From Stegostoma tigrinum (taxonomy: Eukaryota): a DNA stretch of 64,000 bases. Location of the stretch: the NCBI RefSeq assembly GCF_030684315.1, contig NC_081363.1:26724116-26788115 (forward strand). The letters run 5' to 3'. Shown here piece by piece: positions 15,833-64,000 of the stretch (the first letter of the stretch is position 1; the number at the start of each line of letters is the position of its first letter). Made by a program: the position numbers and the translations under genes. The notes below the pieces were generated by a model, which had not been told where the DNA came from, did not search any database, and worked only from the letters and a program-made list of their open reading frames with translations.

Positions 15833-16049
15833 AGAGATCAAAGTGTGAAGCTGGATGAACACAGCAGGCCAAGCAGCATCTCAGGAGCACAAAAGCTGAC
15901 GTTTTGGGCCTAGACCCCTCTCTGATGAAGGGTCTAGACCCGAAATGTCAGCTTTTGTGCTCCTGAGATGCTGCTTGGCCTGTTGTGTTCATCCAGCTTC
16001 ACACTTTGTTATCTTGGATTCTCCAGCATCTGCAGTTCCCATTATCTCT
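15833..16049. mobile_element. Palindromic Penelope 3'-end insertion, family A
   Basis: ~85 bp near-perfect arms meeting at the hammerhead motif (15922-15949), ~35 nt tail on right arm. Confidence 0.9.
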
Positions 16050-17028
16050 TTGCCCAACCTATTCAGCTTTTGCCATGATATTTCCTTACGTGGTTAGTCT
16101 CAAATTTCGACTCGCTACGTTTCTGGAGGCACTCTCCATCACATTAACGTTAGGTGCTGATACACTGCTCGGTTAGTAGATGAAGCAGCAGCTCAGTCAT
16201 TGCAACATCTATGGACAGCGCGCGCGCCTCCACTAGTTCTATAGGGACGGTGGCAGCCCAGCTCTCAGCCTGCGGCGGCTCAGGGGCTTTTGATTCGCGG
16301 TGTCGGATCGTACAAAGCAGATCGAGCACAGAACAGGCTCCCTGAATCCAGGAGGTGCAGACTTCTCAAGATCGCCCCAGACTCCCACAGATCAGATGCC
16401 CACCGACTCCCACCCCGTGCCACCACGACAGATCAGGAGTGCTCTTCCCCATTCTCCACCAGTCCCTGGCCCCGCCCCTGGATAAGTATCAACATTCCAA
16501 ATTGTAACCAATCCTCTGCGCTCTGGCCAATCACAAAGGCTGAAACATATGACATGAAAAAGGCGCCAGATGGAAGGGGGGCGGGAGGGCTGATATCGAG
16601 ATGTAATTAACACGGCTGTTGTTGCTGAATCTACAGGGACCCACCAATTTGCAGCAAAATCTTGTATCTTTCATTAAATATGCTAGTTTTCCAGCGGATG
16701 GCTCCTGCCTTTTTGTGAGTTTAATGATTTCTTTTGGGAGTTGGGGCGGGGAGGGGAAGAGGAGGAGGGAAATCAGATGATATCCGCGCACATATACACA
16801 AGGACATACAGTTACAAATATTTCTTTAGACCACGCACGCCCCTTTCCAGCTGTGAATCGAGATTCCCCGGTTTTCAAGACCTCGACCCGAGCCCGGGGG
16901 TCGGACTGGGATGGGGAGGGGTCGGGAGGGAATTGCACGATTCCAAGGAGTTCAGCACAGACAAAGAACACATTCCAAACCCCACCACCCCCAAAATCAC
17001 CGGCACACCATCAAAAATAAAACCTCAC

Positions 17029-17181
17029 GTCCGAGTAGGAACATCTATCGGAGTCGCTGCCGCCTAAAACGGCGCAGGCTTCATTCTCCAGCTCCTCATC
17101 CTCTTCCAGAACATCGGCCAGAGACACGATGGGATCTTCCTCTTCTAGCGGCCGCTTGTGATTCCCCTCGTTTGCCGCCAT
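17029..17181 (-). CDS. UBR7: UBR7 exon 1 coding part (E3 ubiquitin ligase / histone chaperone)
   Basis: ATG at 17181, 153 nt to GTGAGG donor; MAANEGNHKRPLEEEDPIVSLADVLEEDEELENEACAVLGGSDSDRCSYSD; phases of exons 1-7 join in frame. Confidence 0.97.
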
Positions 17182-17493
17182 CTCGAAGTGTACAAAGACT
17201 TCCGGGTTGGGGCTTTTTAAAGCTGCATCCCCTTCCCCGCCCCCCCCCCTTCACTCTAACCCTGTTTCACTAAATACACCGCCCGCTGTAAATAAGAGAC
17301 TGAGGACCGCATCCGGATCCTACACTTGGTGACTTTGGGCGGTTTCTTATTGTTACGTCCGTTTACCGGAAAGCTGCCTGCGCTGCGCTGTCTCTTTTGC
17401 TACCACCCATTACTGATTATTTTCTTCCGCTGTCGATAGTGAGAGGCGGCCCTGTGCCCGGGCGGGACGGTACTCCGTGGCCCCGCAGTTGGA
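17182..17493. promoter_or_regulatory. Bidirectional CpG-island promoter shared by UBR7 and GON7
   Basis: 312 bp between divergent ATGs; CpG-rich; ETS-like ACTTCCGG 17198-17205 and CCGGAAA 17366-17372; GC box ~17235; YY1-like GCCGCCATCT over the UBR7 ATG. Confidence 0.85.
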
Positions 17494-17719
17494 ATGTCCG
17501 CCCCGGCCTCTGACTGTGAGCTGTGCGGGGAGTTGAGCTCCCGGGGCGGCGAGCGCCGCCACTTCACGGTCCGCACCTCCTGCACCATCCCGGGCGTCCT
17601 GAGCGGAGTCCGCCTCCTGCAGCAGAAACTCCAGGTACCTCTGACCGAGCTCGTCCTGCAGGAGAAGCAACAGGGACAAGGGCAGCGCTGCCCTGAAAGC
17701 CCGGCCTCCAGCACTGCCG
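17494..17719 (+). CDS. GON7: GON7 (C14orf142), KEOPS complex subunit, exon 1
   Basis: MSAPASDCELCGELSSRGGERRHFTVRTSCTIPGVLSGVRLLQQKLQVPLTELVLQE... resembles human ELLGE..GLLSGVAQM; phase-1 GTGAGT donor at 17720; syntenic position head-to-head with UBR7. Confidence 0.88.
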
Positions 17720-18034
17720 GTGAGTCGGGGGGGTGGGGAACGTGTGGTTATTCCTTAGGAGAATACTTCTTAATCTATTGTAGATCTGAGAGTCGGAATT
17801 CTCTCCGTACAGACCCGTCGAAGCTCCGTCCTGGCTAAGGTAGGGATTTTGAGTCCCTGTGGTGTACAATGTTACACCATGATGGTACTGAATGGCGGGC
17901 CAGGCTCGATGGGTTGAATGGCCTGCACCTGTTATCCCGCTGTGGTGATCTTGTTCGCGCATCTAAGATCCTGAGATGGATACCAGGGGGATGCTTTCTC
18001 CTTGTGGTGGAGACAAGAATTACTAGAGATGGTT

Positions 18035-18205
18035 AGTCGTAGAATCCCTACAGCGTGGAAACAGGCCATTCAGCCCATTGAGTCCACATCCGAAGAGCGT
18101 TCTACCCAGGCCCACTTTCCAACCCTACACTACATTTCCCATGGCTAATCCACCTAGCCTGGACAGTATGGCCAATCCACCTAACGTGTACGTCTTTGGA
18201 GCTGA
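18035..18205 (-). mobile_element. SINE 3' fragment
   Basis: TAGAATCCCTACAGCGTGGAAACAGGCCATTCAGCCC tail as in other copies. Confidence 0.65.
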
Positions 18206-18689
18206 GTGAGGACGTGTGAGAATTCTTTTCTGAAGTTCTATAGAGTGCAGGTGGTTTTCAATTTGAGCCAGGTTGGCTTGATTTTGACTCACCGGTGAGT
18301 TGTGGGGTGCTGACAGTAAAGTGTAGATAAGATCACAGAAAAAACTGCCATTGTAGATGAATCACGATGGTCCTCTCTTGGTCTGAAACCAAATGTTTCA
18401 GTCTTCATGCCCCCCACAGTAAATCGAGAGTTAATTCTTGGTGTAGCTCTGCTTTTAATTCTCCATACCTCCCTCGACACCCTCTCCATCATGGATGGAA
18501 CCCTAACATCATGATAGGTGTTGGCCTTTTTTTCTATCCATTGTAGTTTGAGTGAGGGATTGACTTAACCTTGTTCAGAACATGAGTATAAAAGGAAGTG
18601 TGAATAAGCTTGTACATGACCTGTCCCCTCATGACCAACAGTTTGAACCTATTTCCTTCTCCATTTCCCAGCACTGCATTGTACTCCTT

Positions 18690-19000
18690 CCTCCCTGCAG
18701 TGTGGAAACAGGCCATTTGGCCCAATATGTCCACACCAGCCTTCCAAAGAACATCCCTCCCACCCCTGCATTTCCAGTGGCTGAAACACATATCCCTGAA
18801 TGTTATGGGCAATTTAGCATAGCCAATCCATCTAACTTATGTCTTTGAACTGTGGGAGGAAATCGGAGCACCCAGAGGAAACCCATGCAGACACGGGGAG
18901 AATATACAAACTCCACACACAGTTGTCCGAGGCTAGAATCAAACCCGTGTCCCTGGTGCTGTGAAGCAGCAGTGCTTACTGCTGAGCCATGATGTTGCCA
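18690..19000 (-). mobile_element. tRNA-derived SINE
   Basis: Reverse strand reads TGGCTCAGCAGTAAGCACTG..GGGTTTGATTCTAGCC (A and B boxes), then core and tail. Confidence 0.8.
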
Positions 19001-20287
19001 TTCCTATCCCACCACCCTTATGTTCTCCCCTCCCTAACTAGAAAATAACCAGCATTTGTATGACAGTGAAAAGGGAAAAAACTGTTGATGGAAGGGCTGA
19101 AACGAAGGGAACATGGAACGAGGCTAATTGGCAAAATAACTCAACACAGGGGGAAAGCCTCTTCATTCAGCCACTTGGGTTCAGGTCTGGACTCTGAGTC
19201 TGGAGTCACATTCAATTGGGGAATTCAAGAATGAATTAAATTATGAAGGAATTGTTAAACCTGCAGGAGGAGGCCGTTTGGCCGCCCTTGTCTGTACAAT
19301 TAATTGATTAAGTGCCATTCTCCAGCCCTCTCCTTGTAACGCTGCACGTGTTATCTTTCCAGATAATGGTCTAATTCCCTTTGAATGCTTCATTGAACCT
19401 GCTTCCAGTGCACACTCAGGCAGTACCTTTGAGGCCCTAACCTCTGTTGGGGGGCAAAAAGATTTCACCTTCCGTATTTGAAAAGGAAGAAGGCAGAGGT
19501 ATTGGCTTTTGGTACGCTGCTCCTTCAGAGAACAGAGGTAGACATGAGGGGCCAAATGGTCTCCTTCATTGCTGTGACCATTTTATGATTGTGTACAGCA
19601 TCTTTCCCAACCTTTGAATGCTCCAAAGTTCTTCACTATCGGAGCAGAACTTTTATAGTGATTCTTGTAATGCAGGCAAATAATGGAACCAATTTTCATG
19701 CAGTGAGGTAACACAAAAATGTGAATTAGATAAATGATGAACAATTAGTTTAGGGTGTTGTTGAGTGATCAGTGTTGGCCATGACTTTGGAACTCCTCAT
19801 GTCTTCTAAAGTGGTCATTGTTTAATATCCAGTTCAAAAATGTTACCGCCTGACAGTGTCATACTTTTGTCCTGCATCTGTTTCTTTGCTGTTTTGTGGG
19901 AGTTAGGCATTACTGGCATGGCCACCGTTTGTTGCCCATCCCTAATTGCCCTTGAATGGAGGACAGAGGACAGTTAAGAGTTGACCACGTTGCTTTGAAT
20001 CTGGAGTCATTAAGCAGACCAGGGAAGGATGACAAGATTTCCTTCCCTAAAGGAAATTAGTGAACCAGATGTGCTTTTATGACAATTGACAATTGTTATG
20101 TTGTTGCCATTAGGCTAGTTTTAATTCAAGATTTTTATTTACTTCAGACTTTGCCATCTTATGGTAGGATTCAAACCTGTTTCCCCAGAACATTAACCTG
20201 CAGTTTTCGACGACTAGTCCAGCAACATTAACACTGCCCCATCTCTCCATAGTGGTGATATCAAGTGTCAACAGACAGCAGTTACTG

Positions 20288-20489
20288 AAGATAACAAAAT
20301 GTGAAGCTGGATGAACACAGCAGGCCAAGCAGCATCTCGGGAGCACAAAAGCTGATGTTTCGGGCCTAGACCTAGGCCCAAAATGTCAGCTTTTGTGCTC
20401 CTGAGATGCTGCTTGACCTGCTGTGTTCATCCAGTTTCACACTTTGTTATCTTTGGATTCTCTAGCATTTGCAGTTCCCATTATCTCAG
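20288..20489. mobile_element. Palindromic Penelope 3'-end insertion, family A
   Basis: 16 bp TSD AGCAGTTACTGAAGAT 20277-20292 / 20490-20505; centre GGGCCTAGACCTAGGCCC. Confidence 0.9.
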
Positions 20490-23400
20490 AGCAGTTACTG
20501 AAGATTTTGGATTTGGAGTCACATCCTTCTGACTCTAGGGAAAGAGCATTATCACTGAGCCATGGCAGACAACTTGGAGCACCTCGTCTTCCCCTTCCCT
20601 TTCGTGCCTTGGGCACTGATTTCAAATTCAATCCTTCCAGCTGTTTCCCTTGACCTCCTGTCTCCCTTCGACTCTATATCAATTTTATAGACGTTCAAAG
20701 CAAATTGTCTTCATAGTCTATTGTAGGTAGCAATTCAGAATCACAGGTGAGGAAACAAAATTTTGTTTTCTTTTTAAACTGCTTCTACAGAACAGAGTTG
20801 AAGTGGAGAGGGATAGGAACTGTGGGAAAGAGAATGAACTAAAATATGTCAAAAAGGAAGAGAAGAGAAGTATTTCAAATAAAGTGAAGTGGCTATTGTG
20901 AGCAGACTGCATCAATGGTCGCAGTTGAGACTGCCGATGTCCCCATCTTGTGCTTGCTGGCATTATGTGAATGTTATCACTTTGACAGGAGGAGTACTCC
21001 AGTAATCAAGTCCCACTTCTCCATAGGATGTCCTGAAATTGTAAATATTCAACTGAATCACCAAGATTTTTAAATTTACAAATATCTTGATCAAGAAAAA
21101 GACTTACACCTAATTTTTAATCAATAAACACATAAATGTATTTATTATGAATAAACTTAGTCTGTAGAAAAAGGCAAAATGCGTTATTAACTCCTACAAG
21201 GTAAGCTTTGACCTTTAAACCCTAGCACGTACATGTTCATGCACAGAGGGGACAGGACATAGAATTCAGGGTTATTATAGCAAAAATGAAAATCTCATCA
21301 GGAGTCCTAACCTAATGGACACAAATGGAGTTCAGCAAGAAAAGTTGGGTGGACTGTTTGAGTGAATGGTATCAAGATTAGTCATGTCACTAAACGTGTG
21401 CCTTATGAAAATGTGGCACTAACAACAGCCATTTTACTGTATAATTTAAAATATCCACATGCATTCATCATAACTATAAAACCATATTCAATATTTCCCA
21501 AACTGTATTTAAGACAAAAATATCCCAGGATACATGGTGCCAAGGCATGAAACATGAGCTGCTTGCTACTAAACAGTGTTGACTTATATGCAGTAGTGAT
21601 TTTAAACAATATATAATCTGATTTATGTGAAGAATGCTGCTAAAGGCCTCTTGAAGTTTCCATTGAAGACTGATTCTCAATGTTCCACTAGGCCTTTTCT
21701 TGATTGATCAAGACAAGACTAATTGTTTGGAAGCCATCTTCCCCTCCCAGTTATAAATATTCTAGTTGCCAGTTGTACAATGAGAGTGGATTCATCCTTG
21801 GTTGTATTTTTGATATTGATCTTGACTTTTAACTTGTATTTTTCTTTTTGATTTTTTTTGAGGTGTTTTGAACCCATGTGCCAGAATTCTGCCATTAATA
21901 TGTTGGAACTGTTTTAAAACACTAAGAGAACAATCTGGAACATCTCATTGTTTCATCAATTCCATCTCATTGCTTCTTCCTTGCATTTCTCCCCACGGGG
22001 GTACCTCCTAGTTTCTGCTTGCTTCGGCATGTTGTACATTTCAGATTTGCTGCAGGATCTCTTAGTAAGAACACTGTTAAAATGAATAATTATTGTTACT
22101 TTCCCTCTAGAATGAAAGATTGGAATGTATTCTTGGTATTTTTAACAATGTGTTTTTGTGAAAATCATTTGTAGGTTTTTTTAAAAAGTAACTCAGAATT
22201 GTGCTTTGTATTCTACAAAGCAATATATTCTATATGTTATTCTATATAATAACATGGATGTTACATTGTTTTAATTGCTTTAAAAGCTCCCTTTCTTTTC
22301 ATAGTCATTGGAGAAAGTATTAAGTGCATGTTGTTAGGCTTCCTAGAAAAGGCAGAGTTATTGACAAGTACACTAGCAGCTAGCAATAATTTGGCATGAA
22401 GTATATGTTGTTACTTAGCATTTTTAATTAATTTTAAAGTATGAGCAGAGACTGGTGGATTTGCAGTATATCCGAAATGGCTTTTTAATTCTGGCAGGTA
22501 CTGCCTGACAACATGATTCATTCAAAATAATAACTCAACTGGCAATACATTTTAAAAATGGTTCTAGAGAACAGTCCAGCCTTTTGCACAAGTAAGAAAA
22601 AAAGGCTGAAAATCATTTTGTTCAGTTAAATGTTTTCATGATGACAGAATTCATAATTACCTTTTTGCATCTTCTGGGAAATCTCCTTTCACGTAAAACA
22701 AAATCTTCATTGTTTTACCTTCTTAACTGTGAAAAGGATGTTTGTAAATTTCAGTAAAATGAACCATAATAAATGCTGGAAATCTGAAATAACATTAATA
22801 GAAAATTCAGTAAGTATACAGCTGGCCTGTCAGCACTTGTCAAGGTACAGAATAACTTGTTTTCCAAATTTATTTCCTGCTAATTAGTCTGGGATTTTTA
22901 AATCTGATTGGCCTTTCCCTTGAGATTTACCTAGCTTTGTCTAGATGAGAAGGTGTTAATGTTGTGATGCCTACAACCGTGTGAGACTGTCTAAGTGAAC
23001 TGGTATTTTTTTTTGATAATTTTGCCTGTTTTCAGTGTCTAACCCTTGGTGGTGTGTGTTTTCGGCAAGTTTGGTTTTTAAATTTCAAGTTTGCTTTGTA
23101 ACAAAGTTTCCTAGCTAGTTTGCATACTATTATTTCACTTTTTTTGCAAGAAATTATTCCTTTCCTAGTTTTGTTAGAGTCATTGCTGTCATTGTTCAGT
23201 CAATTCAAATGAATGTTATGCACTTTTTTAAAAGTAACCTCACTGTTCCACCATGCCCCCACCCCAAACAAAATATTGAGCTTTAAATTTAATGGTTTTG
23301 TGCAGAGAAGCTGCACTAGTGTACAATTACTAGGAACAATGACTGAACAGATGTGAACATGAATTTACATTAAGGAAAATATACTGGTATCTGTAATATG

Positions 23401-25137
23401 AATATGATTGACAAAGAAAATTTTATTAATGCCAGATGAATCATAATTGTGGAGCTCTTGGTTTTAGCTATCAACAAGTCTATTCAGGATAAATCTCTTG
23501 TCGGACCAAAGTTGAGCTCCATGCAATGTCTTTTAGCGTATAATGCTACAGTCTTGGCTTGAGAGAATTTTTCAGCCATGGTTTGGCAACAGTGCAGTTA
23601 AGTAGATATTGTACCTCATGATCCAGAAGTGAAGATGATTTTGATGAAGGAAACTTGTGTGCTTTTGAAAAGAGAGGAATTGAGTAAAAGGTGTTTATCT
23701 TTAGTAAGCTGAGACGGCAATGGATCAATTTAATTTAAAAATAAGGCAGGTCAACGAAGGTGTTATCAGGATAATTTGCAACATACAAAGTGCTTCCTAA
23801 AGCATTTTCAGCACGGAAATAAGTTTTTCTCACAAGCCGCCTTTCATGCCGTTACATCTAACGTCATACATGTTATAAAAGACCATCTCCCTGCCTTGCT
23901 TTTTAAATTTTATTGCAAGGGCATGTTCTGTTTGATTGTCTTGTTGCTATGCTTTATTCCTTCACAGCCCCAGTTTCTCCAATTGCCTGACTCCTTTGCA
24001 TGGGTTTCAGCATCTTTCTTTCTGGCTTGTGAATGTCTCTGGCTAGGCCAGCAATTTTTTTTCATCCCTTAATTACCCTGAGAAGCTGGTGGTGAAATTA
24101 GTTTAGCTGAGAAACCCATAGCACATGTTGGAGGATTTTATTCTGCTTGTGGAACTGAACTTTCCTGAGCCTACATTCACCCTGCCCTATCACAGGTTTC
24201 TGTAATAACTTTGGAAACCATTAGTTGCCATGCAGGAGCTTCGTGGAATTAAGGATTCTGCCAATCCAAATAGATTTCATCTAATGTTCTTTTTGGTGCA
24301 CGGTTCAATGAGAATTTGTCACTTTGTTCACTCAGAGGGGATTCCTTGTGCGTGAACCTAAATAGTTGGTAGACTAAATTTTTGGGGCAGTTGGCAGGAT
24401 AGTAGATAGTATAATTGAGCCTGATGCAATCATCACCTTGCACTCCATTACAATGAGCCTTGATGTTAAGCCCAGCCAATTTTTTCACCTGCTTAACATA
24501 GGTGTTTAGCAAATCATAGCTTGGATGTGACAGCTCCATAGACTGAGGAATAAATCGCAATCTTAATCTTTACAAAAGCACGTTTGGAAACTTTTTAGTT
24601 TAACAAACAACTGAGATTGGAGTTTAATTTCTATTGAAGGACCGAGTCACCCAGTTATGTCTTTGATTTCAGCCACACTCTGGGGCTGACTGACAAATGA
24701 CCAGACTTAGGTAATATCATTTCTTCATTTAGGACTTAAATAGTCTAGATATCATGATGTCACACTCATAACGTTTGGTGTCCAATGCAGTGTTTTGGTA
24801 ATATGCTAGAAATATCAGCAAGTCTAATTACCTCAATGGTTAATCTTTCACCAAGTTGATTTAGAGGTCACACTTTAAAACCTGTAATTACAGCTCCTGC
24901 CAATTTTAATCTTTTCTATACGTGCGGCATTACTCTTCCTCCCACCCCTATCCTTGGCTTACAGTATCATCCTTTTCGGAATTTAATATCACTTGCCTTC
25001 CACCCAATGCTGTTTCTTTCTTCAAGTATTACCAGCAATCTCAAGAGTTTGCTTTTGTTATCGTGTATTGGAGCCTGGATCCAGATGTTCAGATTGCTAA
25101 CTTATAAAATATGTTTTGCTATAATTGTTTCAATCAG

Positions 25138-25229
25138 ATGAAGATGACGAAGATGACAGTGAAGACGAACCAGCTGATAAAGGAGATGGAGATGCTCCTC
25201 CTTCAAAAAGGACTAGGAAACAATGTTGA
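25138..25229 (+). CDS. GON7: GON7 exon 2 (acidic tail and basic NLS-like end)
   Basis: CAG acceptor 25135-25137, phase matches; DEDDEDDSEDEPADKGDGDAPPSKRTRKQC* resembles human DDEDDAEDE...GPSAKRPKTPS; spliced product 105 aa. Confidence 0.9.
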
Positions 25230-25915
25230 CTTACCATCGGAAGCTGTCTAACTGCTCCAGTTTGAGATGCTGCAATGACGACTTCCTTTAAAAACACTCA
25301 CCTTTTTAAATTCAGGCATTTCATGGCTGCTGAACCTTTTCTAATACTCAAAGATATTTTTGAAAGTGGACAAATTTTGAAAAACCTGATATTTGTTTCT
25401 AATGTAAACCATAGAAAATGATAATTCTACAATGTTCTTGTTTTTGCTTTTTCAGAGAAAATTAAGTCTTCAGACTGTGAGTGACAAAGACAGATATCTA
25501 GTGGAGATTGTCTAAAATGATACATGAATAAGAACATAGTGACTATTTTAACAAGTTTAATGATTTTAAGACAGATAATCAAGTCTGTCATTTACCCAGG
25601 TTCCCATAGTAAGCCTAGATGATTGCTGTTAGATTGACTGATTCTGCTGAGAAGGCAGTGGGAGTTTGTAATTAGATTTCTTCATTAAAACAGCACTATA
25701 CTTTTCATGTCTTGCTGGCTCAGCTTCAGAGGTGTAGTACTGAAAAGATTGAGTAATTGTATAAAATGCTGTAATATGATCCCAAACTGAAATCAGGCTT
25801 GATATTTCATGCTGTTTTTTGTTTTTAACGTGATCTCTCACTGTAATGTGTAAGCGTGCAGTGTTGCAGATTTGGTTTTAACAAAAAAAAGTTCCTTACA
25901 TGAAGACTGAATTAG

Positions 25916-25921
25916 AATAAA
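25916..25921 (+). terminator. Candidate GON7 polyadenylation signal
   Basis: AATAAA ~690 nt after the stop codon. Confidence 0.5.
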
Positions 25922-27199: not shown

Positions 27200-27385
27200 A
27201 AACAAAAACTGAAATTACCGGAGAAGCCCAGCAGGTCTGGCAAGAAATGTGGAGAGAAAGCAGAGGCAATGTTTTGGATCCAGTGACCCTTCAGAACTGA
27301 CTATAGCTAGGTAAAGCTGGTACATATGCTGAAGGGGGGGGGGAGAAGAGAGAAACAATAGATGGCAATGGAGCCAAGAGAGAAC
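27200..27385 (-). mobile_element. Family B Penelope-like 3' end fragment
   Basis: CCCAGCAGGTCTGGCA..GGATCCAGTGACCCTTCAGAAC as in other family B copies. Confidence 0.6.
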
Positions 27386-29829: not shown

Positions 29830-29976
29830 GAGATAGTAAGAACTGCAGATGCTGGAGAATCTGAGATAACAAGGTGTAGAGTTGGATGAACACAGCAGGC
29901 TAAGCAGCATCAGAGAAGCAGGAAAGCTGACGTTTTGGGCGTAGACCCTTCTTCAGCTCTACACCTTGTTGTCTTA
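29830..29976. mobile_element. Asymmetric palindromic Penelope insertion, family A
   Basis: TSD AGAAYAATACYCGA 29818-29831 / 29976-29989; long arm ends exactly at the CTGAAGA box. Confidence 0.85.
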
Positions 29977-37470: not shown

Positions 37471-38155
37471 AAGATAATCAAATGTGAGGCTGGATGAACA
37501 CAGCAGGCCAAGCAGCGTCTCAGGAGCACAAAAGCTGACGTTTCGGGCCTAGACCCTTCATCAGAGAGGGGGATGGGGAGAGGGTTCTGAAATAAACAGG
37601 GAGGGGGTGGAGGCAGACTGAAGATGGCTAGAGGAGAAGAGAGTATGGGTGGGGAGGTAGGGAGGGGATAGGTCAGTCTGGGGAGGACGGATAGGTCAAG
37701 GGGGTGGGGTGAAGTTAGTAGGTAGGAAATGGAGGTGTGGCTTGAGGTGGGAGGAGGGGATAAGTGAGAGGAAGAACAGGTTGGGACGAGCTGGGCTGGT
37801 TTTGGGATGCAGTGGGGGGAGGGGAGATGCACATTCTCCCCGTGCATCAAGCCACACCTCTATTTCCTACCTACTAACTTCACCCCACCCCCTTGACCTA
37901 TCCGTCCTCCCCAGACTGACCTATCCCCTCCCTACCTCCCCACCCATACTCTCTTCTCCTCTAGCCATCTTCAGTCTGCCTCCACCCCCTCCCTGTTTAT
38001 TTCAGAACCCTCTCCCCATCCCCCTCTCTGATAAAGGGTCTAGGCCCGAAACGTCAGCTTTTGTGCTCCTGAGATGCTGCTTGGCCTGCTGTGTTCATCC
38101 AGCCTCACATTTGATTATCTTGGAATTCTCCAGCATCTGCAGTTCCCATCATCTC
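37471..38155. mobile_element. Young, large palindromic Penelope insertion, family A
   Basis: ~275 bp of near-identical inverted arms; 15 bp TSD CTACCCTTGATTAAG 37459-37473 / 38155-38169. Confidence 0.93.
37537..37564 (-). ncRNA. Minimal type I hammerhead ribozyme motif with intact core
   Basis: CUGAUGA-A-GGG(UCUAGG)CCC-GAAAC-GUC^AG; palindromic ACGU in place of helix III, as in dimeric Penelope hammerheads. Confidence 0.8.
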
Positions 38156-38204
38156 TACCCTTGATTAAGTTTTCTACATTTTTGTGTCAGACTCATTCGG
38201 AACA

Positions 38205-41641: not shown

Positions 41642-42387
41642 TAGCTTTCTGGCACTTTAGGTTCATGCATGATGGATGGGTACAGACTGTACTTCTGTTG
41701 GTGCATGCAAAGTCACACACCAGCAGGAATCAGCACTTTCGGGACAGGAAAAGGAGTCAGCTGAGCCGTCAGCAAACATACTTAGAAAGTCACTGTGCCT
41801 TGGCATTGTGTCACTTCAATGGTGCTTAGTGCTACATCATACTAACACTTGCCTCATAAAATTTGAACATCAACATTCCATGGTGCTTCACAGAAACTTT
41901 GCAGTTGTAGGAGAGGTGGCCACAAGCCCTGTGGAAAAGATAGGTTTTCAGGAAGCTATTAAAGGTGGAGATTGTGTTAGGAGGAGTGTTTAGACAATTA
42001 GACTGTGATGGCTGGATATGACTTCTGCTGCCATTTTTGGAAAAGCATTCAAAGACGGTATGCATTGAAGAAAGAAAGGTGGAAAATTCATGAGCTGTTG
42101 CTTATAGCTGAACATGGTTTCAGAGGAAGGATGAAATGAGTCACTGAAGAGGTTTGTGTTGCAGGATTAAGATTTTAATCTGAGGAAACAGAAAACTATG
42201 GAATCCAATTAGGATAGGGCTAGCTGCACTCAGACATTGAATGGCATGCCACTTGCGTTACTAGACTGGATAAACCAGAAAGTGTGGGTTGATATCCCAC
42301 ACGGCAATTTAAGGATTTATCAATCAAATCGCCCAGGAAGCAGTTGCATTGTTGTCCAAACAACAGAGCAAGCAGTCTACTGTTCGT

Positions 42388-42571
42388 GATAATAAAATGT
42401 GAGTCTGGATGAACACAGCAGGCCAAGGAGCATCTCAGGAGCACAAAAGCTGACGTTTAGGCCCGAAACGTCAGCTTTTGTGCTCCTGAGATGCTGCTTG
42501 GCCTGCTGTGTTCATCCAGCCTCACATTTTATTATCTTGGATTCTCCAGCATCTGCAGTTCCCATTATCTC
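42388..42571. mobile_element. Palindromic Penelope 3'-end insertion, family A
   Basis: 15 bp TSD CAGTCTACTGTTCGT 42373-42387 / 42571-42585; centre CTGACGTTT|AGGCCCGAAACGTCAG. Confidence 0.9.
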
Positions 42572-44752: not shown

Positions 44753-44857
44753 CAGGAACAAAAATTGAAGTTGCTGGAAAAGCTCGGCGGGTCTGACAAC
44801 ATCTATGAAGAAAAAAAAGTGTTAACTCTTCGGGGTCCGGTGACCCTTCCTCAGAAT
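44753..44857 (-). mobile_element. Family B single arm ending at the hammerhead motif
   Basis: Reverse strand CTGAGGAAGGGTCACCGGACCCCGAAGAGTT. Confidence 0.7.
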
Positions 44858-53269: not shown

Positions 53270-54330
53270 GCAGGCGCATTTGACGTGCAATTTCACGGCC
53301 GACATTTTCAAAACCGGCATTGCAGGAACGGTAGAGACAACTGCAGTAGAGTAGCTTAATGGTGTCTTTGAAATGTTTTCCTGTGTGCGGAAGGGTAGGA
53401 CAGCTTTAAGGGACAGAGTTTGGGGTGGGAGGGGAGGCGGAGAGGATGACTATGTTTGCAGGCGGCTCGGCAGCGTCCCCTGTTGTCCCGATGCGCCGCT
53501 GCCTCTATTTATTTAGAATGCGAGCTGAGGTCTGAGGGATTTCAATGAGCCGAGGGACTAGGCTCTGGAGGAGGGGAAATCGGGCTGCAGGCTGTCGCCG
53601 GCTCTTGGTCTCTGTCCTGCCTTGTCCCCCCGCCCCCTGACTGTGTGTATCTGCGGCTGGGTTGGGCTTGGAAGCCGCACTCTGTATTTGAGAGACGATT
53701 ATTGATTGAAGGAGGTCTCAGAAACAGCGGCGTCTGATCAGAAAGCCCAGGCGCGAATACCAGGGCAGAGGGATTTGTGATGAACTGGGCACTCACCATT
53801 GATAGAGGTCTTTTTGCAGTTTTTCTTTCCCCCCCCCCCCCCCGCCACCTCCAGCCCTGCCCCCGTGTGTTTTGTTATTTCCCCCCTCCCTTCTCTGTGT
53901 TAATTTTTTTTGTTTGCTGTTGTAGTGTGTCCGGTATTGGGTTCCTGTGCACGGAGGGGGGGAATATAACGTAATGCAAAATGTTGTATGTATGAAATGT
54001 TGCCACTCTGGTGTAAAAGGTAAACCATTGATTTCCAGGTTTGTTAACCTACGGGAGGCACACGGTGTAGATTTCACTTCCGCACTTGTTCCGTTTCAAG
54101 ATGCAGACTTGGCTGAAAGGCAAGCGGGTCGGGTACTGGCTGAGCGAGAAGAAGATCAAGAAGCTGAATTTTCAGGCCTTCGCGGATCTTTGCAGGTAAA
54201 GCCGAGAGCACCCCCGCCCCCTCCGCGGTCTGAGAAACGAATTCGATTGCGTTTGGACTTGGGGAGAGGCGGCAGGAAATAACGCCGATCATGTAGGCAG
54301 CAGCCCATGTGCAATCCGCTTCACTGCCAC
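53270..54330 (+). promoter_or_regulatory. CpG-rich ITPK1 proximal promoter / 5' region
   Basis: CpG/GC enrichment, GC boxes (~53430, ~53627) around the start exon. Confidence 0.65.
54101..54195 (+). CDS. ITPK1: ITPK1 (inositol-tetrakisphosphate 1-kinase) first coding exon
   Basis: MQTWLKGKRVGYWLSEKKIKKLNFQAFADLC(R), 95 nt then GTAAA donor; nearly identical to the vertebrate ITPK1 N-terminus; candidate acceptor TTTCCAG ending 54038; missed by ORF track. Confidence 0.97.
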
Positions 54331-55442
54331 CAGCTTCAAGGAAAGGGGGCAGAGAGAGAGAGAAAGCCTGAAATAACCAGTGATCTGCTGCTCTGCACGG
54401 TCACCCATCATTCTCACTTGAGCGGGCTAAAGGGAAGGAGGGGTTATGGTTATTCGGTGTTAATTTCCTCCAATTGTATAAAACAATAAGATGCTTCCTT
54501 TCAAGATTTACATCTATAGGCATTTACTTTCTGCAAGTGAAAGTATCATATTTTTTACTCACACGATAACCTTTCTGGTCGGTAACAGAACATTGCCAAT
54601 GCAGTGAGTTGAAAGAGGGAAGGTTTTGTTTTGATGATGGAAGTTTAGAATGGAGAACGTGGTTCTGGATCTCGGGCTGCATGTGTTGTGGAACTGTGAG
54701 CCCGTCCCTTGGTGTAGCATGTAGCAGAGTTAGTCGGGTGATCTTTTCTAGACTGTTTAAAGTTGCTGTTGGTAGCCAGCTTGAGGATGCTGTCAGAGGG
54801 ATCTCAATGTTGGTTTAAGGCAGGAACTGTACAGACTTGGAGGTCAGTTCTGAATTTGCTGTTCCTGGTTTTCGGGCTACGCTGCTGCAGACTGATTTCC
54901 CCCTATTTAACCTGTTGTGTTATCAATAGAATGATTGATATTGGTTTTTTTAATTGCCAAGTGTTTGGAGGTCTGAAGGGGCTTTACAAGATAAGTGCTG
55001 GCAAGAATGTTTTTCTTGAGGGAGAATCTAGAACCAGGAAATGCACTTAAAATGATGGATTTCCCATTTTATAACAGAATTTCACGGAGTCATTAATCGT
55101 TGGTATTCTCTTCCTATAAGAGCAGTGGGTCATTGAATATATTCAGGGCTGAGTTCAATTGTTTCTTTTTTCTTAATCAACAGGTGAGATGAGGGTAACA
55201 GAACCCACAAGGAAAAGGCAGTTAAGGCCGCATCAGATCCATGTTTTTGAATAGCTGAGTAGGCTTGTTAGTCTTAATGGACTAGCCCTGTTCCTGTTAA
55301 TGATCTCTTAATAACTATGTAGAAATACAATTCTGAATATTGTTGTGTTTCAGTAGGATCACCTCTCATTCTTCTAACTTGTAATGAATATAGGTCCAAA
55401 TTGCTCAACCTTCCCTGCTGATAAGACAACGTTCATCATACT

Positions 55443-57030
55443 GAGATAGTGGGAACTGCTGATGCTGGAGTATCTGAGATAATAAGGCGCAGAGCTGGAT
55501 GAACACAGCAGGTCGAGCAGGAAGGCTGACGATTCGGGCCTAGGCCCTCCTTCAGAAATGGGGGAGGCAGACAGACTGGTCAAAGAGGCAGGAATGGAGC
55601 CAGTAGGTGGGGAGGTAACATTTCCTGTGGTTGCAGGGAAAAGTGCTTCTGTCTCCTTCCCAAAATCCACAAACCTGACTGCCCTGGTCGAAACAACTGC
55701 TGTAGTGACATCAATCGCCTAAACCTCTCCACCCCTCTCACCCACTCCAACCTCTTTCCCCCGCAGAACATGCAGCCCTCAGCTCCCTCCACTCCAACCC
55801 TAACCTCACACAAAACCAGCGGACAAGGGAAGCGCGGTTGTAGTGCGGCGCATGACCACTACGTTGCCGAGGCCAGATGCCAACTCTCTGACACCACCAC
55901 CTACCGCCCCCTTGATCATGACCCACCCCTAAGCACCAAACCATCTCCGACACAATCCACAACCTCATCACCTCAGGTGACCTCCCACCCACAGCCTCCG
56001 ACCTCATTGTTTCCCAACCCAGCACCGCCCACTTCTGTCACCTTCCCAAAATCCACAAACCTGACTGCCCTGTTTGTCTGCCTTCTGGACGGACCACTCT
56101 CTCCATGACTCCCTTGTCTGCTCCACACACTCTTTTCTATACCACCCCCCCCACCACACCCAGCACTTTTCCCTGCACCTGCAGCAAGTGCTAAACCTGC
56201 CCCTATACCTCCCTCAGCCCCATCCCAGGCCCCAAAAAGACTTTCCACGTCAAGCAGATGTTCACCTGCACATCTGCTAATGTGGTATCCTGCATCCATT
56301 GTACCCGTTGTGGCCTCCTGTACATCAGGGAAACCAAGCGGAGGCTTGGGGACCACTTTGCAGAACACCTACACTTGGTTTGCAGTAAACAACTGCACCT
56401 CGCAGTTGTGAACTATTTCAATTACCCCTCCCATTCCTCAGATATGTCCACCCTGGGCCTCCTGCAGTGCCACGTTGATGCTAAACGAAGGTTGCAGGAA
56501 CAGCAACTCATATTCCGCTTGGGAACCCTGCAGCCCAATGGTATCAATGTGGATTTCACCAGCTTCAAAATCTCCCCTTCCCCAACCGCATCCCAAAACC
56601 AGCCCAGTTCGTCCTTCCTCCCACCTATCCCCTCCTCCTACCTCAAGCCACACCCCCATTTCCTACCTACCAATCTCATCCCGTCCCCTTGACCTGTCCG
56701 TCCTCCCTGAACTGACCTATCTCCTTCCTACCTGCCCACCTACATTCACCTTTACCGGCTTCATCCCTTCCTCTTTGACCGGTCTGTCTCCTCTCCACCT
56801 ATCTTCTCTAGCCATCTCCTATCTGCCTCTCCCTATTTATTTCAGATACCCCCTTCCCTTTCCCCATTTCTGATGAAGGGCCTAGGCCCGAAATGTCAGC
56901 TTTCCTGCTCGTCTGCTGCTTGGCCTGCTGTGGCACTGCTGGAGGCCCAGGGTGGACATGTCTGAGGAATGGGAGGGGGAGATGAAATGGTTGGCCTGCT
57001 GTGTTCATGCAGTTCTACACCTTGTTATTT
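55443..57030 (+). mobile_element. Rearranged Penelope-like element (Neptune-like) with GIY-YIG endonuclease remnant and inverted 5' arm
   Basis: FTCTSANVVSCIHCTRCGLLYIRETKRRLGDHFAEH..EQQLIFRLGTLQPNGINVDF (56258-56570); LPKIHKPDCPGR motif; hammerhead 56870-56897; 13 bp TSD TTCATCATACTGA 55432-55444 / 57029-57041. Confidence 0.92.
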
Positions 57031-57044
57031 CATCATACTGAAAC

Positions 57045-58090
57045 TTCTCTGAACTGCTTCCAATGCAAGTATATTCATACACACTACTTCTGGCATAGTC
57101 TTGTCAGTGCCGTCTACGACCACAGCAAGACTTCCCTAGTTTTGTAATCAATCCCCTTTGCAATAAATGACACCATTCTATTTGCCTTCCTAAATAATGT
57201 GTGCCAACTTTGATTCATGTACAAGGACACCCAGACCCTCTACTGTATCATGCAGCAGTACCTCTCCATTTAAACAATTTTCTACCTTTCTATAATTCCT
57301 GCTAAAGTGGATCACCACACAATTCCCACATTTTTCCCCATTTGGCAAATCTTTGCTTCCTTAAACAATCTACATTCCTTCACACATACTTTGTGTGTTT
57401 ATCACTGCTTGCTTTCCTACCTACCTTTGTCTGATTAGCCAGTCTAGCTGTAGTTCAATCTACTAATGACTTGGATGAAGTGATATAGATAGAACATTGA
57501 AGCTCCAGTTCTACTGTGACACCCTGTTAGTTAAAGTTTGCCAGCCTGAACATGGCCCTTTCTTTTCATCTCTCATTGCTAGTTGGTCATTTCTTTGTCT
57601 GTTCTCATGTACCACCTTCTTGTAATGCCACAGAAAAGACTGCAGCATAAGAATATCAAATGCCTGAAAGAAATTCAAATACACTATGTTGACTGGCTTC
57701 TCTTCATCCACCTGCTTGTTGCATCCTCACAGAATTCTTAATGAATTTGTCAAATGAGATTTCACTTTCAAAAAAATCTTATTGACTCTGCCTGATTTAT
57801 GATTTTCTGAGTGTCCTGATATTCCTTCCCAATAAATAATGGATTTCATCATTTTCCTAGTGGCAGCAATGAGACTGACTGGTCCACCAATTTACACCTT
57901 TTCTGGCCCACTTTTTCTGATTCGTGGTGTTAATTTGGTTTTAATCTGCTGAGACACTTTCAGAATACTGAGAATTTTGGGAGATTCCTTTTTAAGGATG
58001 TAGGATGGAGGCCATCAGGTTCCAAACATGTCAGCCTTGAGTCCCATTTATTTGCCTAGTATGTTTCATCCGGTGATTGATTGCTCTAAC
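57045..58090 (-). mobile_element. Degraded CR1 LINE (host of the Penelope insertion, continues at ~55.3 kb)
   Basis: VNIVYLNFFQAFD RT-motif remnant. Confidence 0.6.
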
Positions 58091-58149
58091 TTTTTTCTTG
58101 TTGATCTCTACACTTATTTATTTATTTATGCTATCTTTTGGGATGTTTT

Positions 58150-59170
58150 CTGTGCCTTCTGAGTTTGATTTATTGTTGTCACGTGTACTGAGATACAGTG
58201 AAAAGTGTTGTTTTGCACACTCCTCAAGCAGATCATAACCAAACAAAATACATCAAGGTGGCAAAACATTGTGTAAAGTACAGTTTTGCAGCTGCAGAGA
58301 AGGTGCACAGAGAGGTAGAGATCAAAATTTCAGAGGCCTGTTCAGAAGTCCGCTAACAGCAGGGAGAAGCAGTTCTTCAATCTGTTCACACATGTATTCA
58401 AATTTTGATGTCTTCTGCCAGATGGAAGAGTATAATTGGGCTGAGAAAGGTCTTTAATTATGTTGGTTGCTTTCCCGTGGCAGAAGGAGGTATAGATGGA
58501 GTTAATGAATGGAAGGCTGGTTTGTGAGATGGAGTAGGTGGTGTGCATGACATAGTTTTTTTTGCTGTCTTGGGAAGAGCAGTTGCATCAGTGTGGGATG
58601 ACATCCAGATAAGATGCTTTAGATGGTGCATATAATAAAAATTGGTGAGTCATTGTGGACATGCCAAATTTCCTTAGTCTTCTGAGGAAGAAGATACACT
58701 GTCATGCTTTCTTGACAGCAGTGGTGGACCAGGACAAATTGTTGGTGATCATTACTGCCAGGAACTTGACGATCTTGACCACCTTCACCTCAGGACCATT
58801 GATAGACAGGGGTGTGTCCTCCACACTGCTTCCTGAAGTCAATAACCACCTCCTTTGTTTTGCTGACATGATGGAGCAATTGTTGTCATTACGCCATGTC
58901 TCGTTATTGAGATCTGACTTGCAACACTGGCGTCAGCAAACCTGTTAATGGAATTGTGGCAAAATTTGGCCACACAGTTGTGCTTGTGTAAGGAGTATAG
59001 CAGGGGGTTGAATACACAGCCTTGCTGCAGTACCGGTGTTGAGGATGATGATGGAAGTGATAGTCGTGGCCTATAGGTTAGGAGGTCGAAGATCCAGTTA
59101 GAGTGGGGAGCTGTTACCTAGGTCTTGGAATTTAGAGATGAGTTTGTCTGGAATTAAGGAGTCGAAGGCA
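58150..59170 (-). mobile_element. Rex1/Babar-like LINE 3' fragment
   Basis: KATNIIKD..LPSGRRHQNL..NRLKNCF C-terminal signature. Confidence 0.65.
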
Positions 59171-59609
59171 GTGCTGTGTACAATAAATAGGAGAACAAGT
59201 ATCTTTTATTCACTTCAGGTAATGAGGGTGTTGTTGACTAGACCAGCATTCATTGTCCATTCCTAATTGCCCGTAAGGCAGAGTCAACCACATTGCCGTG
59301 GGCCTGGAGTCACATGTAGGCCAAGCCAGGCAAGGTAAGGATGACCAGTTCCCTTCCCTAACGGACACTAGTGAACCAAGAGGGTTTATCTGACCATCGA
59401 CAATGGATTCATGGTCATCATTAGGCTCTCAATTCCAGATTTATTTTTCTTTTTTGCATTTACTGAATTCAAATTCCACCATCCGTTGTGGTGGGTCTCT
59501 GGAACATTCTTGGGTCTCGGGCTTAAAAGTCCACTGATAATACCGTTAGGCCATCACCGCCTCATCCTACCTTCTATTGTGAGGTAGATACAAAATTTTT
59601 GTTCAAAGC

Positions 59610-59767
59610 AAACGCAACAAGAACAAAATTGCTGTAAAAGCTCAGCAGGTCTGGCAGCATCTGTGGAGGAGAAAACAGAGATAACGTTTCGTGTCCGGTG
59701 ACCCCTCCTCGCCCTTTCCAGCAACTTAGTTTTTGTTCCTGATTTACAGCATCCGTTGTTCTTTTGC
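59610..59767. mobile_element. Palindromic family B insertion
   Basis: 12 bp TSD TTTGTTCAAAGC 59598-59609 / 59768-59779; left arm ends inside the hammerhead CUGANGA box. Confidence 0.75.
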
Positions 59768-60104
59768 TTTGTTCAAAGCTCCTGTCATTCCTTTGCTTCC
59801 CCTTTTTAATTCCAGTGTCACCATTTAAGGAGCAAACACTCACTTTATTTTTATATTGCTTTTACTGTATCATATTGTATTTGTTGCTAGTATTTGCTCT
59901 ATTGCAATCTCTCCAACTTTTAATTTATCTTTTTCATGGTTTTCAAACATCTCTCAATATTTTGGGATATGCTAATCTTTCTTTCACTTTGATATTATTC
60001 TTGTGTTCCTTTTAAAGCAGGGTTGCATCCTTCTGATGTTAACGTTCTTGTGCAACAATGCACTGTCAAAAGACAGGAAATATAGATAATTAAATGCTTG
60101 AGTG

Positions 60105-63100
60105 CTCCTACATAGAAGATAGGAGGAGGCCATTCAGTCCTTCTCACCTCCTCCACCATTCTTCACGATCCTAACTGGTCTTCCAACTTAATAGCCTGAT
60201 CCTGCTATCTCCCCATTACCTTTGATCCCATTTGCTCCAAGTGCTATGTCTAGTCGCTTCTTGAAAATGTTCACTGTTTTGCATCAACTACTTCCTGTGG
60301 TAATGCATTCCACAGGCTCACCACTCCCTGGGTGAAGAAATGTCTCCTCATCTCCATCTTAAATAGTCTATCTCAAATCCTCTTAGTGTGGGCCCTGGAT
60401 CTGGAAACACCCACCATCGGGAACGTCCTCCCTGCATTTAACCTGTCCAGTCCTGTTAGAATTTTATAAGTTTTGATGAGACTGCCCTGCACCCCCATTC
60501 ATCTGAACTCCAGCGAAAACAATCCCCACCTAGTCAATCTCTCCTCTCCTCATATGTCAGATCCGTCTGGTAAATCTTCGCTGCACTCCCTTAAGCAACA
60601 GCATCCTTCCTCAGAAAAGGAGTCCAAAAGTCTGCACTATATTACAGGTGTAGCCTTACCAAGGCTGTGTATAACTGCAACAACACATCCCTGCTCCAGT
60701 ATGCAACCCCTCACAATGAAGGCCAGCATAGCATTTGCCTTCTTTACCACCTGCTGCACCTGCGTGCTTGCCTTCAGCAACTGGTGCACAAGGACACCTC
60801 AGGTCCTGTTGTACCCTCCCCTCTCCCAATTTACACCCATTCACAAAATAATCTGCCTTTTTTTTTCTTCTTCCAAAGTGAGTAACCTCACATTTATCCA
60901 AATTATACTGTATTTGCCATTGATTTGCTCACTCATCCAACTTGTCAAGATCATCTGAAGGATCTCTGCATTCTTGTCACAGTTCACCCTCTTACCCAAC
61001 TGAGTATTACCTGCAAACTTGGAGATGTTACTTTTTTGTTCCCCCATCCAAATCACTAATATATATTGTGAATAACTGGGGTTCCAGCACCGATTCGATA
61101 TTCTTTGTTTTTTCCTCTGCCAATCAATTTTCTCTCCCTCTTAATACACTTCCTCCAATCCTGTGTGCTTTAATCTTGCAATTAATCTGTTGTGTGGGAC
61201 ATTGTCAAACAAAGTCCCAATATACTGCATGGAGTTGACAAAGAGGAACTTGTAGTTACATCCTCCTAGAATTCCAGCAGATTTGTCAAGCATGATTTCC
61301 CCTTCGTAAATCCATGGCTACTCTATCTGATCCAGCCATTGATTTCTAAATGCTCTGCTATAAAATCCTTGACAAAGGATTTGAGAATTTTCCCCATAAT
61401 GATGTTAGCCTCACCGATCTGTAATTTCCTGCTTTCTCTCTACCTCTCTTTTTGAATATTGGAATGACATTAGCCATCCTTCAATCTGCAGGGACTACTT
61501 CGGAGTCTAGAATCCTGGAAGATATCCACAAATGAATCTGTTATTTCTGGAGCTATTTCCTTAAGTACTCTGGGATGTAGATTATCAGGCCCTGGGGATT
61601 TATTGGCCTTCAACCCCAACAACCTTCCTGGCACCATTTCTCTACTAGTATTGATCTCCTTCAATTCTTCCTTCTCTCTAAATCTTGCATCCTCCAATAA
61701 TTCTGGTATCTGATTTTTTTTGTCCTTTTTTTTTTGTGAAGACAGAACAAAAGTATATATTCAGTTCCTCAGCCATTTCTTTGTCACCTATTGTACATTC
61801 CTCAGTTTCTGCCTATAGGGGACCTACATTTGTCTTTATCAATCTCCTTCTGTTCACGTACCAATAGAAACTCATAGCATCAGTCTTTATGTTCCCTGCA
61901 AGTTTACTTCTGCGGTCTATTTTTTCCCTTAAGCAACCCTTAAGTTTTTGCCGAATTCTAAGCTGCTTCCAATCCTCAGATGTATTTTTTTTGGCCAATC
62001 TGTATGCTTCTTCCTTGGATCGGATACTATTTCTAATTTCTTTTTGTAAGCCGTGGATTAGCTGTCTTACCTATTTTTTGTTTTCTTTTTTTGTTTTTGC
62101 GACAGGAATAAACAGTTGTTGCAGTTTTCCCCCATGCATTCCTTGAATGTTTGCGAATGCCTATCTACTGTCATCCCTTTTTTAAGTAACTTTTCCCTAA
62201 TCTATCGAGGCCAACTCACACCTCGTACCCTGTAGCTTCCTTTATAAAGGTTCAGCACCCTTGTCTCTGAATCAATACCCTCACTTTCCATCTTGATTTA
62301 AAAAAAAAATTCTTCTATCATGTTATCATCACACTCCCCCGCGCACCCCCCCCCCCCCAAAAAAAAGGAGATCTCGCACAGCTAGATTGGCAATGATTCC
62401 TTTCTCATTACACAGCACCCAGTCTAAGATGGCCTGCTATCAAGCTGGTTTCTCCATGTATTGATCAAGTAAACCGTCCCATGTACATTCCAGGAATTCC
62501 TCTGCTATGGTGTTATAGCTAACCTGATTTGCCCAATCAATGTGTAAATTAAAATCACTGACAGTGCCTTATCCCATGCATCTAATTTTCTGTTTAATGC
62601 CATTCTTAACATCACTGCAGTCTGGGGGTCTGTATATGATACCTAATGCTTTTTTGCCCCTTGGTATTTCTCAAATCTACCCAGACAGACTCCAGTTGTC
62701 AGAGCTGTTATCCTTTCTCACTACTGTTAATTTCCTCTTTAACCAGCAATGCCACTCCACCACCAACTTTCTTTTTGCCTGTTGTTCCTAAATACTGAAT
62801 ACCTGGGACATTCAGTTTCCATCCCTAGTCACTTTGTAGCCATGTCTCTGGGTACAATATAATTGGGATTACATTTACAATTAGTTGATCCACTTTATTG
62901 CAGATGTTCTGCACAAAGCCTTTAAGCTTGTCCTTTTAACATTATTTGTCTCCTTAATTTTGTTTGAACAGCCCTGTTTGAATCTTGACCTTGGTTTCTC
63001 AGCCTATCACTTTTTTTTTCTTTCCCTCTGAGTCTTACATAGCTTCTCATTCCCCTGGCATTTTAGTTTAAACCTTCCCCGGTGGCTCCAGCAAACACAC

Positions 63101-63530
63101 TCTCTTCTCCCTAGGTCATCAGCCCCAGTCCTGCCCATGTGTAGACTGTCCAATTTGCACAGGTCTCACCTTCCCCAGAAGCAGTCCCAATGCCCCAGGC
63201 ATCTGAAACTCTTCCCCTCGCACCTCCCACTCCCAACAGCATCTTTTCAGTCACGTAGTCATGCAGTATATCCTATCATTTTTCCTCTGACCGGCACGTG
63301 GTATCAGAGTAATCCTGAGATCACTACCTTTTTTGTGATCAGATTTCTTCACTTTCCTCTTAGCTGCCTGTATGCTGCCTTTTAGGACCTCCTCCTTCTT
63401 TTTTCCCCACCCATGTTGTTTTTACTGACATGTACCATGACCACTGGCTGTTCACCCTCCCCCCTTCGGAATCCCCACCCTCCCCCTTAGGAATCCTGTA
63501 CCTGCTTTGAGACATCCTTGATCCTGCTAG
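60105..63530 (-). mobile_element. Long decayed CR1 LINE (ORF2 plus esterase-type ORF1 remnant)
   Basis: KSPGPDNLHPRVLKE, KCEVTHFGR in ORF2; GEGEQPVVMVHV.. SGNH-esterase-like ORF1 remnant near 63420-63465. Confidence 0.85.
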
Positions 63531-63534
63531 AGAA

Positions 63535-64000
63535 CCCAAGATAACAAAGTGTGGAGCTGGATGAACACAGCAGGCCAAGCAGCATCTCGGGAGCACAAAA
63601 ACTGCCATTTCGGGCCTAGACCCTTCTTCAGAGAGGGGGATGGGGAAGAGGGTTCCGGAATAAATAGGGAGAGAGGGGGAGGCGGACCGAAGATGGATAG
63701 AGGAGAAGATAGGTGGGGAGGGGATAGGTGAGGACGGATAGGTCAAGGGGGTGGGATGAGGTTCGTAGGTGGGAAATGGAGGTGCGGCTTGAGGTGGGAG
63801 GAGGGGATAGGTGAGAGGAAGACGATGTTAGGGAGGTACGGATGAGCTAGGCTGGTTTTGTGTTGCACTGGGGGAAGGGGAGATTTTAAAGCTTGTGAAA
63901 TCGACATTGATACCATTGGGCTGCAGCGTTCCCAAGTGGGATGTGAGTTGCTATTCCTGCAACCTACAGGTGGCACTGCAGGAGGCCCATGATGGATATG
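63535..64000 (-). mobile_element. Penelope-like element 3' end (family A), continues beyond window
   Basis: End of GIY-YIG coding region, pyrimidine-rich 3' UTR and hammerhead motif with GUC>GGC change at ~63604-63631. Confidence 0.9.

Follow-up and report, generated by a model that had tools for sequence, protein, structure and literature searches.

A minimal hammerhead ribozyme motif recurs throughout the stretch of Stegostoma tigrinum DNA analysed here (the window, 64 kb at C12:26724116-26788115 of a 3.2-Gb assembly), where it belongs to the pseudo-long terminal repeat (pLTR) of a Penelope-like element (PLE). Junctions between copies of this element across the genome suggest that in the germ line the hammerhead likely cut, at GUC^AG, a small share of the element RNAs, and that the reverse transcriptase (RT) of the element likely copied the cut RNAs into the genome. 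With more reserve, we lean towards a broader reading. The genome would preserve the first record of a PLE minimal hammerhead that cuts its RNA in vivo, together with repeat addition by a telomerase-related RT on a ribozyme-bounded template, while capped, uncut RNA starting at -4 would make most insertions. With more than 100,000 copies, the family supplies sufficient rare events for RNA ends to be read in DNA. Throughout, positions are counted from C3 of the core as 0 (window 37564, minus strand), and the predicted cut falls between +27 (C17) and +28.

The motif and its host element

The motif is a minimal type I hammerhead, with the core CUGANGA ... GAAA ... UH in type I order. Its intact copy at 37537-37564 (minus strand), with the predicted cut after 37537 (C17), was correctly located by an earlier note on this window. 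Helix II comprises 4 base pairs (bp; GGGU/GCCC) with a CUAG loop, not the 3 bp (GGG/CCC) first described, and the variants GGGC/GCCC and GGGU/ACCC retain the fourth pair. One nucleotide, an extra A, stands between A9 and G10.1, and the G10.1-C11.1 pair is present. Helix III is absent, with palindromic ACGU at 15.2-16.2 instead, and helix I has 2 bp. The extra A, the ACGU and the short helix I are real, but they are not peculiar. According to the accessible part of PMC4209133, PLE minimal hammerheads generally have a nucleotide between 9 and 10.1, the G10.1-C11.1 pair and a palindrome at 15.2-16.2, and the hammerhead of D. virilis has a 2-bp helix I. Given this match to published features, the motif is ordinary in kind and a member of the known PLE minimal hammerheads. 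As a side observation, helix II and its loop (window 37545-37556) form a near-perfect 12-nucleotide (nt) palindrome; a predicted two-strand fold pairs this palindrome between molecules, which could compete with an active dimer.

The host is a PLE, as the earlier note had supposed. Three copies (L116, L117 and L118) have the arrangement pLTR-open reading frame (ORF)-pLTR, with the motif in both pLTRs, 3,471-3,564 nt apart, and an RT and GIY-YIG ORF between. The motif follows the stop codon of the ORF at a distance of ~230 nt, in the same orientation, and its tail, traced outwards, leads to the N-terminus of an ORF. Placement in a 3' untranslated region (UTR) therefore holds for one end of the element only, since the segment is a pLTR and also the 5' leader of the next ORF. 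Long copies match Pfam RVT_1 and a GIY-YIG at the C-terminus, both below the Pfam cut-offs. No match was found for the 132-amino-acid window fragment in Pfam or for the ORF in a PDB search. The linker between RT and GIY-YIG in the L118 ORF reads CNRRKCYTC and fits CX2-5CxxC, which is defined as a feature of the Neptune clade (PMC8557442); judged by these residues, it is of the Neptune/Nematis type. The repeat resembles repeats of cartilaginous fishes. In the window, 56102-56700 codes for a decayed Zn-linker and GIY-YIG region 5' of the motif, and a genome search returned 227,538 first-look candidates, 150 of which were scored. Copies end at two places, near +92 and at +125..+130. The depth of two contig runs of unknown kind over the element was 3'-biased; contigs cannot show RNA ends.

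The suspicion that the genome holds the motif in very large numbers was borne out. The exact 30-mer of the motif occurs 90,316 times in the genome (45,079 + 45,237 by strand; 0 in the reversed control), and a pattern fixing the core and G10.1-C11.1 at the same helix length gave 130,576 matches (control, 1). A structure-descriptor scan, of the kind the earlier note had suggested, found 41 matches in 834 kb vs 0 in reversed DNA. In 1.234 Mb sampled without bias (the window and 117 stretches of 10 kb each), we counted 25 exact 30-mers and 213 tail-anchored copies, corresponding to about half a million genome-wide.

Many copies have decayed. Among 79 young copies, gathered by a scan limiting core mismatches, CpG-product changes were counted at C11.1 (17), G12 (12), C15.2 (8) and G16.2 (14), or 10-22% CpG decay per position, vs 0-4 changes at other motif positions. 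The GAAAU variants are accordingly explained by CpG decay of C15.2, which strikes copies at random. Neighbours within 4 kb among 134 sampled motifs formed 6 same-strand pairs vs 46 opposite-strand pairs, so that few genomic copies could dimerise in cis. Most genomic motif copies are lone, decaying by-products. To call them latent ribozymes overstates most of them, given the few same-strand pairs, the CpG decay and the predicted folds, which trap the core.

Two 5' boundaries recorded in genomic copies

Copies of the element that follow directly on the tail of another copy restart preferentially at the predicted cut site. Junctions were tallied by hand; an open junction search specified a tail end, 0-16 free bases and +37 onward. 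The exact junction of tail and +28 had 51 occurrences at 34 loci. Short-tail junctions numbered 167; among the first 100 listed, 76 restart at +28 (42 of 63 loci), including 12 of the 13 multi-unit loci among them, while the remaining 24 are spread over +20..+37. Long-tail junctions numbered 104; five duplicates of the short-tail set were dropped, and 55 of the 95 new ones listed restart at +28. Seven others are ambiguous by microhomology, although compatible with +28, and 33 lie elsewhere. An extra G was found at none of 131 junctions at +28.

Twenty loci examined carry tandem arrays starting at +28, with up to 9 units (L216; 9.4 copies at 98% identity). At L216, L219, L220, L222 and L229, one and the same array combines units of 67, 68 and 69 nt, and uniform arrays occur at L217 (four units of 68 nt) and L232 (four of 69 nt). 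Within one array the upstream ends vary while +28 stays fixed, and different arrays carry different subfamily variants. A further array of ~100-nt units (C17:68221148-68221681) has six junctions with five different upstream ends, each junction falling at the cut site or beside it. The +28 units lack the ribozyme core; in the window, the stretch that they repeat elsewhere in the genome corresponds to the pLTR tail 3' of the cut (+28 to ~+93, up to the first 3' end) at 37471-37536 on the minus strand. Mixed unit lengths within arrays imply repeated template jumping.

The same boundary appears in inverted copies. Head-to-head palindromes centred on AGCT (+28..+31) were found at 566 loci. Of two control palindromes, ACGT (+23..+26), for which CpG decay was tolerated, gave 37 loci, and GGCC, which lies in the tail, gave 21. 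Both +28 tandem and head-to-head ends are present at L218, L219, L221 and L229. A plain-boundary search gave 2,787 copies at +28 vs 519 at +31, a contrast blurred by palindromic junctions, which made up 63 of the first 100.

A second boundary lies near -4, just upstream of the core. Of the 213 tail-anchored copies, 81 extend past -140, 18 start in -140..-11 and 67 in -10..+2, with peaks at -4 (17 copies) and -3 (14 copies); further starts fall in +3..+25 (33), +26..+30 (3) and +31..+50 (11). Start density is 5.15 per nt in -10..+2 vs 0.14 per nt in -140..-11. Position -4 is preceded by G in 1,799 copies vs A or T in 694, as counted with position -6 forced off the consensus and perfect-palindrome base; the window is 41% G+C. 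Similarly, 24 of 42 tail-to-start junctions carry a G that neither flank supplies (counted by hand, leaving aside two ambiguous cases). An extra G opposite the cap is a signature of an RT that has reached the end of a capped RNA, for which the literature searched yielded no paper. The -4 boundary with its untemplated G thus resembles a capped transcription start, which we infer at positions -4..-1 (window 37565-37568, minus strand), the 5' strand of helix I. With 67 of 213 copies starting in -10..+2, most insertions would derive from uncut RNA. The putative start (window 37565-37570, minus strand) has a C followed by pyrimidines in two subfamilies, presumably akin to a TCT-type initiator or 5'-terminal oligopyrimidine (5'-TOP) start. 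In D. virilis Penelope, transcription also starts within the pLTR, according to the accessible part of PMC2377424.

A proposed route and its rivals

These boundaries can be joined in a single route. Transcription would begin at ~-4 in a pyrimidine run and yield a capped RNA that opens with the ribozyme as its first 32 nt. This RNA would mostly misfold and stay uncut, giving the 31% of copies that start in -10..+2, often with an untemplated G. Occasionally two motifs would pair through ACGU, probably with help from the protein of the element, as reported for the anole element, and cut, leaving an uncapped 5'-OH end at +28. The RT would start internally near +94..+97 or +125..+135 and run to +28, often re-priming at the same internal site to produce tandem units of 67-70 or ~100-106 nt in a telomerase-like repeat addition. 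Two complementary DNAs ending at +28 could anneal via their self-complementary AGCT and generate head-to-head copies. Most insertions would need no cleavage. In telomerase repeat addition and in template jumping by R2-type RTs, the enzyme copies to a fixed 5' template boundary and re-primes. By comparison, the boundary here would be cut by a ribozyme, the units are 67-106 nt, and re-priming would be imprecise and rare. PLE RTs are the sister group of telomerase RT (PMC8557442).

Double cleavage releasing a unit-length RNA was also considered as the source of the normal template and was rejected, as copies do not as a rule start at +28 and end 65-105 nt beyond.

RNA folding was modelled for the element. 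Predicted folds never yield the hammerhead and instead trap its core: a CUGAUG/CGUCAG hairpin dominates in short RNA, and other folds prevail in longer RNA. Such folds could explain why cutting is rare, yet they also offer a rival in which the RT stalls. Cleavage would depend on dimer formation or on help from protein.

Several observations weigh against cutting as the source of the +28 boundary. Strict single-boundary counts gave 215 at +28, 51 at +26 and 232 at +30; the last consists mostly of recurrent microhomology junctions, and the +28 listing revealed 68-nt periods. Simple starts at +28 are rare, with 0 of the 213 sampled copies (3 in +26..+30). In exact-match searches, which lose old copies and used one tail variant each, the signal did not appear in the older subfamily, where none of 6 junctions is clearly at the cut, or in a second PLE family (2 junctions, 1 + 1, neither at the cut). 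At many +28 junctions one A also matches the upstream side, so that a reading as +29 is open to them; many others lack this match and fix +28, and restarts missing the A itself number three in the two lists. Finally, the predicted CUGAUG/CGUCAG hairpin ends at +29 and could stall the RT nearby.

This last point underlies a reading that we consider unlikely, in which no cutting occurs and +28 is a hot spot of RT stalling or template switching due either to a bound protein or to RNA structure, namely the CUGAUG/CGUCAG hairpin over helix II. In short nascent RNA the hairpin at 0-29 reaches predicted pair probabilities of 0.67-1.0. It is weaker in the older subfamily, which has A at position 4 and lacks the junction signal, and the accessible part of Frangieh et al. 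(PMC11167929) reports that no reads were found to end at the cut site of the anole element. However, a stall at the hairpin foot predicts restarts at +30 or +29, which were seen once each vs 76 at +28 among the first 100 listed, and the hairpin is no longer predicted in longer RNA. Moreover, +28 equals the scissile bond to the base. Cleavage would still have taken place in vivo in an alternative that we hold more doubtful still, whereby the 3' product was circularised (the +28 5'-OH joined to a 3' end near +95 or +130) and reverse transcribed by rolling circle. A circle route has been proposed for PLEs and retrozymes (PMC4209133, accessible part), and the uniform arrays at L217 and L232 would suit it. 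Because one circle would give one junction, the mixed unit lengths within arrays and the six junctions with five upstream ends of the C17 array count against it; in addition, array 3' ends match genomic tail ends, that is, RT start sites.

Least probable, in our estimation, is that the motif is a non-functional passenger in an amplified element end, with arrays arising by DNA slippage or from one ancestral array. Copies do decay neutrally, with CpG loss even at G12, PLE clades without hammerheads proliferate well (PMC8557442), and 8 of 9 Xenopus dimers failed to cleave in vitro in the accessible part of a preprint (10.64898/2026.07.22.740005). Against this, 42 loci share one fixed junction side while differing in subfamily variants and upstream ends, the junction is without homology that could drive slippage, and the core is retained with re-paired helices across families. 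Occasional cleavage followed by reverse transcription is the reading we prefer. If it is true, cutting is a minor route that removes the cap and the first 32 nt, and its uncapped product readily undergoes repeated template jumping by a telomerase-like RT. Junctions could be counted in the same way in every genome that carries a large PLE family, and no new experiments would be needed.

Known systems, other families and further copies in the window

The element can be compared with metazoan PLE minimal hammerheads as described in the accessible part of PMC4209133. Common to both are the type I core, the absence of helix III, a motif in both pLTRs and mostly lone copies. Helix II is 4 bp here vs 6-8 in the published examples, and 130,576 intact cores stand against ~4,000 motifs in Latimeria (coelacanth) and ~9,000 in Xenopus. 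That founding paper offered no evidence from in vivo work; in the present genome, junctions fall at the cut. For axolotl, a published count gives 126,247 hammerheads, which are canonical, unlike the minimal motif here. The present count is no record, but, the axolotl genome (28 Gb) being ~nine times larger, the density here is ~nine times higher.

The closest experimental counterpart described is the anole element PAc (Poseidon; PMC11167929, accessible part), whose hammerhead cleaves only with protein and whose RT starts internally at two sites that make the PLE 'tail'. Both elements have a hammerhead at the pLTR-ORF junction, priming on both DNA strands and uncut RNA as the main template. In this work on PAc, the only biochemical study, no reads were found to end at the cut and ribozyme mutants were without effect; the accessible text describes neither cut-site restarts nor cut-bounded tandem units. 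Unlike PAc, the present element has a Neptune-type CX4CxxC linker. Short tandem pLTR derivatives are shared with non-LTR retrozymes (PMC7229834 and the preprint of Li et al. 2026, accessible parts), but the +28 units are coreless and ragged in length; two hammerheads do occur here in a small number of short direct dimers. A role for the hammerhead in endonuclease-bearing PLEs is stated to be unclear (PMC8557442). The literature searched, with Lunse et al. and Arkhipova et al. 2017 outside its coverage, contains no report of cut-site-bounded arrays or of this motif in such a genome. The apparent novelty lies in a genomic record, read from copy junctions, of two 5' ends of the RNA.

Other PLE families in this genome differ at position 7, in the extra base, in loop II and at N17, but retain the core. 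Helix II has 4, 5 or 6 bp and helix I 2-4 bp, closing with U-A or A-U; helix pairs were read by eye, and MAFFT failed to align the long helix II families by structure. Core conservation with re-paired helices, which the earlier note had asked for across subfamilies, is therefore seen across families, albeit in families drawn from a core-biased scan. One of them has a GIY-YIG 35-39% identical to that of the main element, ~230-250 nt 5' of its cut.

All seven motif places listed in the earlier note are present in the window, including GAAAU at 15922-15949 and 56870-56897 (both plus strand), and the four copies it gave as core-mutated are so; the list was incomplete, with an eighth copy overlooked at 29929-29956 (minus). 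This copy starts at position 0 behind a G and carries G12>A. The intact hammerhead lies in a 5'-truncated PLE copy (37472-37825, minus; 3' UTR, hammerhead and short tail) that forms one arm of a 286-nt inverted pair. Its partner (37848-38156, plus) has a long tail and a hammerhead with G8>A at 38028-38055. Both GAAAU copies carry C15.2>U: that at 15922-15949 starts near -7 and stands head-to-head to an inverted arm at 15833-15920, and that at 56870-56897 lies 3' of a decayed, internally deleted PLE ORF (55694-56625, plus) with RT N-terminal fragments and the C-terminal Zn-linker/GIY-YIG in a frame starting at 56102. The remaining motifs, all on the minus strand, are a short copy beginning just 5' of the core with A6>C (5281-5308), an older-subfamily copy with A9>G and A15.1>U (55528-55555), and one with U16.1>G and C15.2>U (63604-63631) at the end of a copy spanning 63539-64000, whose CUGAAGA differs only at the variable position 7. 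Two head-to-head pairs truncated inside helix II, without core and with strand not assigned, lie at 20288-20456 and 42386-42571. When the window was scanned with Rfam, none of the hammerhead families matched at E<=5; the sole hits were to microRNAs of the hairpin type and stayed below threshold.

Elsewhere in the genome, at L087, L089, L091, L097, L114 and L115, internal deletion has left short direct dimers whose two hammerheads are separated by 315-600 nt; these are natural candidates for cis-dimer cleavage and for the birth of retrozymes. Two short upstream frames can be read from the printed sequence at L116:1396-1530 (plus), and also from window 37564 downwards (minus). The first starts at the AUG inside CUGAUGA and has 13 codons; the second starts in the tail, in frame with the main ORF and with a single UGA between, near the long-tail end.

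The window also holds relics of other families. A 169-nt inverted repeat at 4731-5099 ends in a decayed minimal hammerhead (5020-5053, plus) of a second PLE-like family with a 6-bp helix II and an extra U; in its relative D1, the ORF ends with a stop codon that falls within helix II/loop II. Tails of older related families (D3, D7 and D8) occur at window 5800, 27206, 38210, 44762, 48260, 50704 and 59620, and the hammerheads of these families have a 5-bp helix II, a GUU cut triplet and a 3-4-bp helix I.

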